From: Octopus sinensis
Taxonomy: Eukaryota
Reading direction: 5' to 3'
Length of the DNA: 64,000 nucleotides
Assembly: GCF_006345805.1 (NCBI RefSeq)
Contig: NC_042999.1
Span: forward strand, 165,478,001-165,542,000
The translations under genes were made by a program, and so were the position numbers. Numbering within the stretch: the first letter of the stretch is position 1; every line of letters starts with the position of its first letter. Of this stretch, positions 35,814 through 39,234 are shown one piece after another. The notes under the pieces were generated by a model, which worked only from the letters and a program-made list of their open reading frames with translations, was not told the origin of the DNA and did not search any database.

Positions 35814-36031
35814 TGTTACACATTCATATCTATGTGTTTACGTATGCCAAACTACATCTCCACTCTTGGCACTATTTTGTTAGTGAATAGTACAAACTGT
35901 GTGTAAAGTATATAATGTATTACTACGCTGAATGTCGAGTCCGTGTAACATGAGCAGTCAATAAACACGTAACAATAACAATGGTTTTCATTTGGTTGTC
36001 TATCCCATTAGAACCCAAACTACACATAACA
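35814..36031 (+). repeat. 5' LTR
   Basis: TGTTAC...ATAACA. TATA-like gtatataat and AATAAA inside. Confidence 0.97.
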
Positions 36032-36049
36032 TGGTGGCAGCGGTGGGAT
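36032..36049 (+). promoter_or_regulatory. Primer binding site complementary to the tRNA-Leu 3' end
   Basis: TGGTGGCAGCGGTGGGAT is the reverse complement of ATCCCACCGCTGCCA-CCA, the 3' end of metazoan tRNA-Leu(AAG/TAG). Confidence 0.9.
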
Positions 36050-36156
36050 AAAGAAATGGAAACTGTGCCTTTACAACAAATCTGAAACGCAACGAACCAG
36101 GAAATTAACAAACAAAACATCGCTTCGCCTTCGGACAACATACACGATGATCCAAG

Positions 36157-38916
36157 ATGGCGACCCCCGTCACCGTACAGATGAATCTACATCCGATTAT
36201 GGATTGGGGCTCCAATATTTTGGAAGCATTTAAAAAGTTTAAACAGAAAACTCAACTAGCTTTCAAAAGTTTCCTGAAAGGCACAACTGACGATGAGAAG
36301 GTAAGCTATATCCTTTTATGGTCAGGTAATAAAGGAATAGACCTATACAATAGCTGGGATATGTCAGGATCGGACTGCAATAACCCAGACACACTTCTTG
36401 AGAAATTTGAGAGGCACCTAGAGCCCAGGTCGAACCATAGAATTCACAGATACGAATTCCAGGGCCTGAAACAAGCCCCACAAGAAACAATTGACAATTT
36501 CCTGTCAAGACTGAAAAATGTTGCAGAGAAATGCAAATTCAAAGACAGGGAGGAGAGAATTGTAGACCAATTAATATGGGGGTGTGCCCACAAAGAAGTA
36601 CAAAAATCACTAATAGGTAAGGACGCTCTCCAGTTGGTAGAAGCAGTAGACACTGCAAGAGCATTCGAAGCCACTACCAAACAGATGGCCTCACTTAGCT
36701 TACAAACAAGCTCACTTGGTAGCAGTGTAGATACTGTATCTAGGCACAGGACACAAACCCACAAACAAAGAACATGCCAGTACTGCGGTACAGAGCATGA
36801 ATTTAATAACCGAAAAAAATGTCCTGCATTCGGTACACACTGCAAAGGATGTGGAAAACTTAACCACTGGAAAAAAATGTGTAGGGTAACAAAATCCCAG
36901 AGATATAAGCCCCAATTTTCAAAGAGGAGCAGAAATAGAAGGGATATACATGCACAACAACAGGAACAAAACACCTCAGAGGAGGAATTCTTGGCAATCG
37001 GCATAATAAATGTGCATGAGATGGGAAAGGACGACCGGAAGAAAGAAGATGAGGCATACACGACAATAAGAATTGAAAAGAAGGCCGGAAGGAAAAGAAC
37101 AAACATTGACTTAAGGCTGAAGATAGACACTGGAGCCCAGAGTGATATCTTGCCTGTCAGCTTATACAAGAAGATGTTCCCAGAAAATATGACAGAAGAG
37201 GATAGGGTCAGGAAAGGAATCCTCACACAAAGTGATGTGGTCCTCACTGCGTACGGAGGTACCAGGATTCCACAACTGGGGAAAACAACGATTAGGGGGA
37301 CACACAAAGGGAAAACAATCGAGTGTACATTTTATGTCACAAGAACAGAAGGCCCAGCAATTCTTGGACTCAATACCTGCAGGAGGTTAAATATTGTGTC
37401 GGTCAATGCTGAAGTGAAAGCAGCTCCAAGCAGGATTGACAGTGATATGCCTATCAAAGACCGACCACCAATCACAAACAAACAGGAGATGGAAGGACCA
37501 AGCAGAAAGGTCCACCACATTGTAAATGTGACAACCACAAAGCTAGTGGAAATCAAAGAGGAGACCAGCAAAGATGAAGAACTTCAGCTCCTTACTCAGA
37601 TGGTGATTCAGGGGTGGCCAGAAAAGAGACATCAGGTGCAGCCCCTAATTCGTGAATATTGGGCCATCCATGATGATATATCAGTGGAGAATGGAATCCT
37701 GATGGCTGGATCCCGAATCATTATACCCAAGTCAATGCAAAAGGAGATTCTTGACAAGATCCACCAAGGGCATCTAGGAATGGAAAAATGCAAGCTCCGA
37801 GCCAAGTCAGCAGTATATTGGGTAGGCATGTACAAAGACATAGAAAAGACAGTTTCTACATGCCACATCTGTCAAAAGTACAGAAACTCACAACAAAAGG
37901 AGGAAATGATATCTAGTGACATCCCAAGAAGGCCATGGCAAACTATTGGAGTAGATCTATTCACAGAGGGCCAAGAATGGTATTTAATAATGGCCTGCTA
38001 CTACTCCAAATTTCCATTTGTGAGAAAAGTGAAAGATCTGACAGCCAAAACAATCACTACAGTGGCTCGAGGACTTCTAGCAGAGCAAGGAATACCAGAG
38101 CAGATCATATGTGACAATGGAACCCAGTTCACATCACAAGAATTCAAAAAGCTAGCCGATGAGTATGGGTTCAATATTACAACTTCATCTCCACACTATC
38201 CCAAAGGCCATGGGTTTATAGAAAGACAGGTGCAGACAGTGAAGAGAACACTAGTCAAATGCCGAGAGACTAAGGAAGACCCACACCTGGCACTTCTGTC
38301 CCTACGAGCGACACCACTGAGAGCTGATATGAAATCCCCAGCAGAATTACTGAATGGCAGGAAGTATAAAACTACCCTGCCAACAAAGATCCAACCTCCT
38401 ATTGACCAGGAAGAGACAAGGGCAAAGCTAGCTGCCACTCAAGAACGAGCACAGAGGCATCACAACAAACATGCACAATATTTACCTGAGATGCTTGGAG
38501 GACAACATGTGCATACTCAAGATCCCATAACTAAAACATGGATCCCAGCACAGGTTGTCAGTAGAGCTGAAACTCCAAGATCGTATATAATAGAAACGGA
38601 ATCTGGTAGGCAGCTGAGACGCAACAGGGCCCACATCCGCCCAACACCAAAGCTGTTGAGGACAACGTGTACAACACCTGCTGCATCGGTGACAACACCC
38701 ACAGAATCATCACCCCAACGGGCACCAACCACATATCAGCAGCCCAACAACACACCTCAGACAGGTGCGAAGCAAAAGATCCACCAGATGGAGAAAGAAC
38801 ATTCTGCCACCGGTTCGATACCATTAAAGAAAAAAAAAAAGAAAATGAAAAGAGAAGTATCTAATTCAGCTAGACTACAAAGCAGAGGCAGAATAACCTC
38901 ACGACTTCTGCTGTAG
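36157..38916 (+). CDS. Gag-aspartic protease-integrase polyprotein (919 aa), no RT or RNase H
   Basis: Two Cys/His knuckles (CQYCGTEH..C; CKGCGKLNHWKKMC), protease IDTGA..ILG, integrase HHCC (HQGH..CHIC) and intact D(GVDLF)-D(CDNG)-35-E(FIER). No YxDD or RNase H motifs between protease and integrase. Confidence 0.95.
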   Translation: MATPVTVQMNLHPIMDWGSNILEAFKKFKQKTQLAFKSFLKGTTDDEKVSYILLWSGNKGIDLYNSWDMSGSDCNNPDTLLEKFERHLEPRSNHRIHRYEFQGLKQAPQETIDNFLSRLKNVAEKCKFKDREERIVDQLIWGCAHKEVQKSLIGKDALQLVEAVDTARAFEATTKQMASLSLQTSSLGSSVDTVSRHRTQTHKQRTCQYCGTEHEFNNRKKCPAFGTHCKGCGKLNHWKKMCRVTKSQRYKPQFSKRSRNRRDIHAQQQEQNTSEEEFLAIGIINVHEMGKDDRKKEDEAYTTIRIEKKAGRKRTNIDLRLKIDTGAQSDILPVSLYKKMFPENMTEEDRVRKGILTQSDVVLTAYGGTRIPQLGKTTIRGTHKGKTIECTFYVTRTEGPAILGLNTCRRLNIVSVNAEVKAAPSRIDSDMPIKDRPPITNKQEMEGPSRKVHHIVNVTTTKLVEIKEETSKDEELQLLTQMVIQGWPEKRHQVQPLIREYWAIHDDISVENGILMAGSRIIIPKSMQKEILDKIHQGHLGMEKCKLRAKSAVYWVGMYKDIEKTVSTCHICQKYRNSQQKEEMISSDIPRRPWQTIGVDLFTEGQEWYLIMACYYSKFPFVRKVKDLTAKTITTVARGLLAEQGIPEQIICDNGTQFTSQEFKKLADEYGFNITTSSPHYPKGHGFIERQVQTVKRTLVKCRETKEDPHLALLSLRATPLRADMKSPAELLNGRKYKTTLPTKIQPPIDQEETRAKLAATQERAQRHHNKHAQYLPEMLGGQHVHTQDPITKTWIPAQVVSRAETPRSYIIETESGRQLRRNRAHIRPTPKLLRTTCTTPAASVTTPTESSPQRAPTTYQQPNNTPQTGAKQKIHQMEKEHSATGSIPLKKKKKKMKREVSNSARLQSRGRITSRLLL

Positions 38917-39004
38917 GATTGCCACCTGAGGCTGACAATCCATAGAGCAAGGGAGACTACTAATAGTTGTCTTCACTGCCAAAAGACCCCTTTATTTTTT
39001 TTTC

Positions 39005-39016
39005 AGGAAGAAGGGA
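39005..39016 (+). promoter_or_regulatory. Polypurine tract
   Basis: aggaagaaggga immediately 5' of the 3' LTR. Confidence 0.9.
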
Positions 39017-39234
39017 TGTTACACATTCATATCTATGTGTTTACGTATGCCAAACTACATCTCCACTCTTGGCACTATTTTGTTAGTGAATAGTACAAAC
39101 TGTGTGTAAAGTATATAATGTATCACTACGCTGAATGTCGAGTCCGTGTAACATGAGCAGTCAATAAACACGTAACAATAACAATGGTTTTCATTTGGTT
39201 GTCTCTCCCATTAGAACCCAAACTACACATAACA
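39017..39234 (+). repeat. 3' LTR
   Basis: 216/218 identical to the 5' LTR by manual comparison. Confidence 0.97.

Follow-up and report, generated by a model that had tools for sequence, protein, structure and literature searches.

Long terminal repeat (LTR) retrotransposons that keep their own Gag and borrow enzymes from other elements are already known from plants and, as IAP 1Δ1, from the mouse, mostly as finished products. IAP 1Δ1 is an endogenous retrovirus whose 1.9-kb deletion cuts gag and pol; it depends on proteins supplied in trans by full-length copies, while its own fusion protein is reported to work in cis (PMC6466679, PMC7411935). Wheat RLG_Quinta, aged 28-35 million years, is described there as supplying Gag while taking reverse transcriptase (RT) and integrase from Cereba, and RLG_Sabrina and the Fatima subfamilies 1.4/1.5 are described as similar to Quinta (PMC11302176, PMC6097303). 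TR-GAGs are reported to retain Gag and in some cases protease as well (PMC5818461; bioRxiv 10.64898/2026.03.01.708851), and a sugar beet preprint gives 15 families with partly decayed remnants of RT, ribonuclease H (RNase H, RH) or integrase (INT). Here we analyze a new animal example of this known freeloading kind, found in Octopus sinensis. The sequence examined is a 64-kb window (the whole stretch of DNA analyzed) from a genome assembly labelled G000; at positions 35814-39234 (+) it holds a Ty3/Gypsy LTR retrotransposon whose open reading frame (ORF; protein P0001) joins Gag, a putative protease and integrase.

The octopus element resembles IAP 1Δ1 in being a non-autonomous LTR element in which one in-frame internal deletion has produced a single fused ORF; unlike IAP 1Δ1, it is of the Ty3/Gypsy type and RT-RNase H was removed exactly, leaving Gag, protease and integrase whole at first. 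With TR-GAGs, Quinta, Sabrina and Fatima, as far as the cited sources describe them, it has in common a kept Gag, LTR termini and a primer-binding site (PBS) matching those of an autonomous partner, and enzymes that would be borrowed. All of these, however, come from plants and are described as having neither RT nor integrase, whereas the octopus lineage is young, bears integrase and displays intermediate steps of loss. By what defines these types, the element belongs to neither: as in a TR-GAG, Gag is kept and appears selected, but pol extends beyond protease, the integrase being whole in the window copy, and a Gypsy-type element with gag whole falls outside the IAP type. P0001 also differs from an autonomous element, which would encode RT and RNase H. 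The autonomous Ty3/Gypsy relatives named 'K02A2.6-like' or 'Tf2-1 polyprotein' (P0004-P0008) likewise have a single Gag-Pol frame, in the order protease-RT-RNase H-integrase (PR-RT-RH-IN), but keep RT-RNase H, with about 645 amino acids (aa) between the protease site and the integrase against about 200 aa here. A search of open-access literature with exact phrases found no RT-less element keeping Gag and integrase, which is weak evidence of absence. In two of 120 listed relatives from other sources (P0021 and P0110, both single-contig predictions) protease runs on into RNase H or integrase with RT missing; these may have lost RT independently, or they may be artefacts of gene prediction.

Results

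A multi-copy lineage that has lost RT and RNase H

Searching G000 with the element returned copies matching from end to end and copies matching in two pieces, the latter breaking at element position 1667-1674. We refer to copies bearing this junction as short and to those without the RT-RNase H deletion as long. The flank-to-flank gap was 1,353 nucleotides (nt) in 3 of 14 long loci (L033, L034 and L037) and within a few bases of that in most others, and further long loci, sampled later, also have a gap of 1,353 nt. This equals 451 codons, and its removal keeps the reading frame. A natural copy of the missing segment matched Pfam RVT_1 (E 1e-19), RT_RNaseH (1e-29) and RT_RNaseH_2, all above cut-off; it starts just upstream of RT and ends just past the RNase H 'ADALSR' motif. 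Long copies carry protease, RVT_1, RT_RNaseH and integrase, so that the PR-RT-RH-IN order is present in the parent form. The same junction was found in all 22 short loci aligned. The breakpoints have only the letters AAA exactly in common and GT..AG ends were not found at them, which rules out splicing as the source of the junction. In the predicted model the junction lies inside a disordered linker (aa 439-457) between two confidently modelled regions, the protease and the integrase N-terminal extension. The deletion would have arisen once, by a reverse-transcriptase template jump at short A-rich homology, a likely origin in view of established retroelement biology.

Our sample comprised 41 sequences with the junction and 73 further loci of the family. 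After removal of same-flank duplicates and array copies (4 short, 18 long), 37 short and 55 'long' rows were left, the latter including partial copies. Exact-word searches of G000 gave at least 37 occurrences of the junction on 16 contigs and at least 46 of the long form, with none for reversed controls. Two whole LTRs and a target-site duplication (TSD) with at most one mismatch were present in 25 short copies, each with different flanks. Because the junction recurs in many copies with their own flanks and TSDs, the deletion predates insertion, and the short form is a multi-copy non-autonomous lineage. Its partner, with common LTR termini and PBS, is the long form in the same genome. Median LTR divergence was 1.9% in short copies with an intact HHCC zinc finger in the integrase (n=12), 0.9% in a sub-lineage with a further 282-nt deletion (n=9) and 2.0% in long copies (n=15); short and long copies did not differ (P=0.74), which implies that both forms were active in the same period. 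A stop-free run of >1,200 aa is still present in 1 of 73 long loci, runs of >900 aa are kept in two short loci, and most short copies have stops or frameshifts. Beyond this genome, a protein named from Octopus vulgaris (P0031) spans the identical protease-integrase junction, and contigs of two other public runs (X6 and X7) span it with a borderline left side of 27-30 letters, just under 31.

Several other loci of the family were set apart. An apparent 'mirror' lineage that keeps RT and has lost ~1.1 kb of integrase (L088, L091, L094-L096, L098 and L099) was rejected, since its common flanks point to tandem or segmental copies, not separate insertions. Together with L125 and L126, these loci lie on G000 C27, C28, C2 and small contigs; 740-nt LTR-LTR remnants that recur every 12-15 kb on C2 have flanks in common with the mirror copies. 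Judging from these flanks, the element appears to have been copied as part of a larger repeat, tandem or segmental. In L080 (oriented 4979-6101) the ORF tail contains at least 14 tandem copies of an 81-nt piece, and other copies of the element contain two or three. L127-L130 have the LTR/PBS word only, without an internal match. At L129/L134 (G000:C8:95804624-95805505) two words of the tRNA-Leu 3' end lie ~850 nt apart, also without an internal match, one of them preceded by the family LTR-end word; this is perhaps an unrelated small element or a tRNA-derived repeat.

Stepwise loss of the integrase finger

The first deletion is the sole shared loss in 16 of the 37 short copies; six have lost a further 321 nt (equivalent to window 37563-37883), 14 a further ~282 nt (37544-37825) and one a further 333 nt. 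All three nested deletions keep the frame and take away the N-terminal extension of the integrase together with all or half of the HHCC finger, which (scored at H536) is kept in 15 of 37 short copies and gone in 22. A stop at codon 555 occurs in three HHCC-intact copies with their own TSDs (L004, L006 and L010) and in no other copy. As both the HHCC-less copies and those with this stop have their own TSDs, a complete integrase of their own was not needed for insertion. The catalytic residues are nonetheless retained in the covered short rows (D600 in 40/40, D653 in 37/39 and E689 in 40/40). Separately, contigs of four runs presumed by guess to be RNA have long-form ends, and those of three of the four the 282-nt joint; they may be DNA and we draw no claim of transcription from them.

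All four multi-copy deletions 5' of the integrase C-terminus (1,353, 321, 282 and 30 nt) are in frame, against a null expectation, from short direct repeats of the ORF, of 35-43%. Further downstream there are shared frameshifts, one at codon ~822 in six copies and another, of 76 nt, within the tail. Losses of a single base, two in all, each occur in two copies. An open frame looks favoured in the short lineage and yet not required, because of the shared stop at codon 555 and the shared late frameshifts.

Selection on capsid, protease and integrase

Singleton changes, mostly post-insertion, served as the neutral baseline, and were set against changes shared by two or more short copies but found in none of the 55 long rows, which have passed through transposition. 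For the capsid (aa 10-184) the silent-to-replacement ratio was 11:7 among shared changes and 11:49 among singletons (P=0.0009); within HHCC-less short copies it was 6:3 against 10:28 (P=0.045). The excess survived growth of the outgroup from 38 to 55 rows, and other domain bounds agreed. These counts argue that the Gag capsid is under purifying selection in the short lineage. Purifying selection on the integrase was not seen in the same comparison across the 37 short copies (7:16 against 35:99, P=0.8; P=0.6-0.8 for the whole integrase across domain bounds). The protease, at 2:7 against 10:42 (P=1), was not significant in long copies either, so that its test is uninformative. Long-copy controls gave P=0.0002 for the capsid and P=0.008 (aa 523-835) or 0.08 (aa 465-834) for the integrase. 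When integrase changes in at least three copies were compared directly, short copies had 3:11 and long copies 22:15 (P=0.027; P=0.63 at the two-copy threshold). HHCC-intact short copies alone have just four shared integrase changes, too few for a test.

Exchange with long copies

Among short copies linkage decays with distance (mean r2 from 0.38 to 0.11; none of 500 permutations was as strong). For gag-protease (33 short and 44 long rows), a single clade of short copies was rejected (approximately unbiased test, p 4e-10), and short copies sit among long copies in both trees. Blocks can be recognized individually: L032 and L109 are long-type copies with short-type protease blocks, several short copies have a long-type protease, and the long copy L068 has tail deletions common to the 282-nt short group. 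A G-rich protease word beside the junction, with 33 occurrences in G000, is in 32 short-type copies and one long-type copy. The simplest cause of this block exchange is co-packaging with template switching; gene conversion between genomic copies could be an added source. The TSDs and the recombination together point to mobilization of the short copies in trans.

A model of shared particles and its alternatives

We favour, at a probability of about two in three, a Ty3/Gypsy lineage of at least 37 copies that has lost RT-RNase H, likely provides its own Gag, and borrows RT and probably integrase from long copies. RNA of a short copy would be translated, and its own Gag would bind that RNA in cis and package it. 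Gag-Pol from long copies would co-assemble with short-copy Gag in a mixed particle, where the helper RT would copy the short RNA from a tRNA-Leu primer and the helper integrase, or either integrase, would insert the product. The equal youth of short and long copies and their recombination fit such shared particles. An open frame through most of the RNA would help by translation-coupled packaging or by escape from nonsense decay; a fusion protein acting in cis, as in IAP, is favoured by the capsid selection and the in-frame deletions and opposed by the shared codon-555 stop. For the integrase of the window copy, the role of a passenger is the most likely; the copy would represent an early point in a stepwise reduction that leads to an element with Gag alone. 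Several points weigh against the shared-particle model. The integrase test has low power, its long-copy control dropping to P=0.08 when the N-terminal extension is included, and the in-frame bias is weak (P about 0.03, rising to 0.06 when the first deletion, which prompted the finding, is left out). The stop at codon 555 in three short copies and the frameshift at ~822 in six indicate that an open frame is not strictly required. Alleles counted as private to short copies may come from unsampled long copies, the non-monophyly of the short copies may also mean recurrent deletion, and their transcription, translation and packaging are predictions from genomic sequence.

The preliminary description of the element had supposed that it builds its own particle and integrase and borrows RT only. 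The first part of this gains support from the capsid; the second does not hold up well against the loss of the finger in most short copies, the shared stop and the lack of visible selection on the integrase. A version in which HHCC-intact copies give working Gag, protease and integrase and borrow just RT-RNase H, with HHCC-less copies as second-order parasites, seems unlikely to us. The deletion is indeed domain-exact, sparing protease and the whole integrase with its N-terminal extension, almost every short row retains the catalytic residues, two short loci have long stop-free runs, and the integrase core taken by itself gives 6:6 shared against 19:56 singleton changes (P=0.09). Retention of the residues is expected anyway at about 5% divergence, however, the whole-integrase test shows nothing, the codon-555 stop sits in three HHCC-intact copies whose TSDs differ, and most short copies are HHCC-less, the 282-nt group tending to be younger (P=0.07). 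Doubtful too is the combination of an RT-only parasite feeding a finger-less second tier with a fixed burst of A>G changes representing ADAR edits written back into the genome. We consider it rather improbable that short copies travel purely as passenger RNAs, for which nothing but LTR, PBS, polypurine tract (PPT) and packaging signals would matter, with a capsid signal due to imported gag or to RNA-level constraint. Extensive recombination with long copies and the stops or frameshifts of most short copies would suit such a passenger, and the capsid signal is built on 18 shared changes in total; but the alleles counted are absent from all 55 long rows and the excess outlasts enlargement of the outgroup, RNA-level constraint would lower silent changes instead of enriching them, and no multi-copy frameshifting deletion 5' of the integrase C-terminus was found among dispersed short copies.

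Repeated origin of the short form by splicing or at a deletion hotspot, without any self-propagating lineage, would account for the failure of short copies to form one gag-protease clade and for their mixing with long copies in both trees. We hold it to be very improbable, given breakpoints without GT..AG and with exact homology of AAA only, the near-restriction of the G-rich word to short-type copies, and nested deletions common to 6 and to 14 insertions, which indicate descent within the short form. An assembly artefact or a one-off post-insertion deletion has nothing in its favour, is refuted by the copy census and keeps a negligible chance: 37 exact junction matches lie on 16 contigs with distinct TSDs, and the identical junction recurs in the protein named from O. 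vulgaris and in the borderline contigs of two public runs. The preliminary description had proposed an in-frame removal of RT-RNase H before insertion, a non-autonomous lineage and an autonomous-type partner with the same LTR, and all of these were found; a single-copy junction, a collapsed assembly and an RVT_1 match within the ORF, any of which would have spoken against them, were not.

Anatomy of the window copy and neighbouring features

The window copy has direct LTRs (TG...CA), PBS, PPT and a short TSD (Table 1), as the preliminary description had given them. The LTR pair has 2 differences over 218 nt, and the 5-bp TSD one mismatch. The PBS word occurs 61 times in G000, and ARAGORN gave tRNA-Leu(AAG) at one of three loci scanned.

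Table 1 Features of the window copy (35814-39234) in window coordinates
Feature	Position	Strand	Details
Left TSD	35809..35813	+	ACCAG
5' LTR	35814..36031	+	218 nt, TG...CA
PBS	36032..36049	+	complementary to tRNA-Leu(AAG) 3' end
ORF P0001	36157..38916	+	919 aa, no stop; Gag-protease-integrase without RT or RNase H
Gag capsid-like helical domain, aa 10-184	36184..36708	+	weak Pfam Retrotrans_gag, helical model, selection
Two Cys/His zinc knuckles, C207-C222 and C229-C242	36775..36882	+	read from sequence
Putative retropepsin-type protease, aa 298-418; DTG at 37126-37134	37048..37410	+	conservation and model; no Pfam match
A>G cluster, lineage-wide	37125..37402	+	15/24 changes A>G, 0 T>C
Deletion junction	37480..37487	+	1,353 nt (451 codons, RT and RNase H) missing
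Integrase	37528..38658	+	N-terminal extension (about aa 458-522), HHCC, core, C-terminal domain
Integrase HHCC finger	37762-37872	+	H536/H539/C569/C572
Integrase core D600/D653/E689	37954, 38113, 38221	+	DD35E
Low-complexity ORF tail	38659..38916	+	frameshift near 38763 compared with almost every other copy
PPT	39005..39016	+	sequence
3' LTR	39017..39234	+	218 nt
Right TSD	39235..39239	+	ACCGG

The ORF had been called intact. It is stop-free, with knuckles, DTG, HHCC and DD35E in place, but near 38763 the window copy has a frameshift with respect to 84 of the 87 copies that cover this site. The final ~50 residues are thus read in a different frame, and the window copy has lost a C-terminal motif that P0003, P0031 and other relatives possess. 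The distance from the protease site (D324; DTG is aa 324-326) to H536, given earlier as ~630 nt, measures 636 nt. Pfam searches of P0001 matched Integrase_H2C2 and rve and neither RVT_1 nor RT_RNaseH, as foreseen; the aspartic-protease match that had also been foreseen did not appear among the Pfam families of that type. The best solved relatives of P0001, by sequence and by fold, are foamy virus and Ty3 integrases. The capsid region matched Pfam Retrotrans_gag at E 0.001, below cut-off, and is helical in the predicted model (pLDDT, the model's per-residue confidence, ~90). On motif conservation and the model, aa 298-418 are a putative retropepsin-type protease: K322, D324 and G326 are invariant among 90 aligned proteins, an ILG motif is conserved in relatives, and around aa 300-418 the model shows, with confidence, a domain rich in beta strands. 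A fold search with the whole model gave only integrases among the matches listed, and no structure match for the protease fold. At aa 330, after the protease DTG, 88 of 89 relatives have Asn, and most family copies, long and short, have Asp.

Elsewhere in the window, nested inverted repeats with arms of 46-48 nt lie at 39250-39708, 15 nt from the 3' LTR, and resemble a foldback element or a miniature inverted-repeat transposable element. A 262-aa open frame at 16082-16870 (-), with several hydrophobic stretches and cysteines, resembles a small membrane protein gene. Broken frames at 53618-55115 (-) and 5779-6192 (+) resemble what we take to be RT/endonuclease fragments of non-LTR retrotransposons.

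Discussion

Two further features of the lineage deserve mention. In the region of the A>G cluster (Table 1), which was chosen after looking, A>G makes up 15 of the 24 lineage-wide changes, compared with 3 of 11 elsewhere; those in the cluster are fixed in most short copies, with polarity supported at some sites only. A 5' G, which ADAR disfavours, is depleted at the A>G sites (1/17 against a background of 24%). The pattern is suggestive of ADAR editing passed into the genome, and RT-driven A>G error or hypermutation is possibly the alternative cause; no direct precedent was found in the listed literature on ADAR-edited elements. The other feature is similarity across phyla. Among the matches listed, the nearest named proteins are from octopus, at 91-96% identity, and the window integrase is 97% identical to P0005 (octopus), 83% to P0004 (sea urchin) and about 65% to amphioxus proteins (P0006-P0008). 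Compared with the sea urchin element P0004 and with P0002 and P0003, two proteins of marine type, protein identity is 81% for the RT-RNase H of a long copy (L068:2337-3689) and 82-84% for the P0001 integrase (aa 523-835). The sea urchin identities suggest a candidate horizontal transfer between phyla.

Arc and PEG10 have a Gag-derived capsid, with or without protease and without RT, and are single-copy, LTR-less and conserved. The octopus family, unlike them, is dispersed, with LTRs and TSDs and with mostly broken frames; it is not a single fixed LTR-less locus. Domestication at this locus, for which the preliminary description had seen raw material, is therefore not indicated, the copies being dispersed, young and mostly broken.

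Neither a new mechanism nor a host function is revealed by these elements. Their value lies in the fact that one animal genome holds the full series, long, RT-less, and RT-less plus finger-less, at about 1-2% LTR divergence. Such a series allows one to ask which proteins have to come from the LTR element itself, in cis; the sequences suggest that Gag is one of them and integrase is not. The octopus lineage is thus a natural system in which to test cis-preference and to follow the origin of Gag-only elements, from which domesticated Gag genes are drawn.

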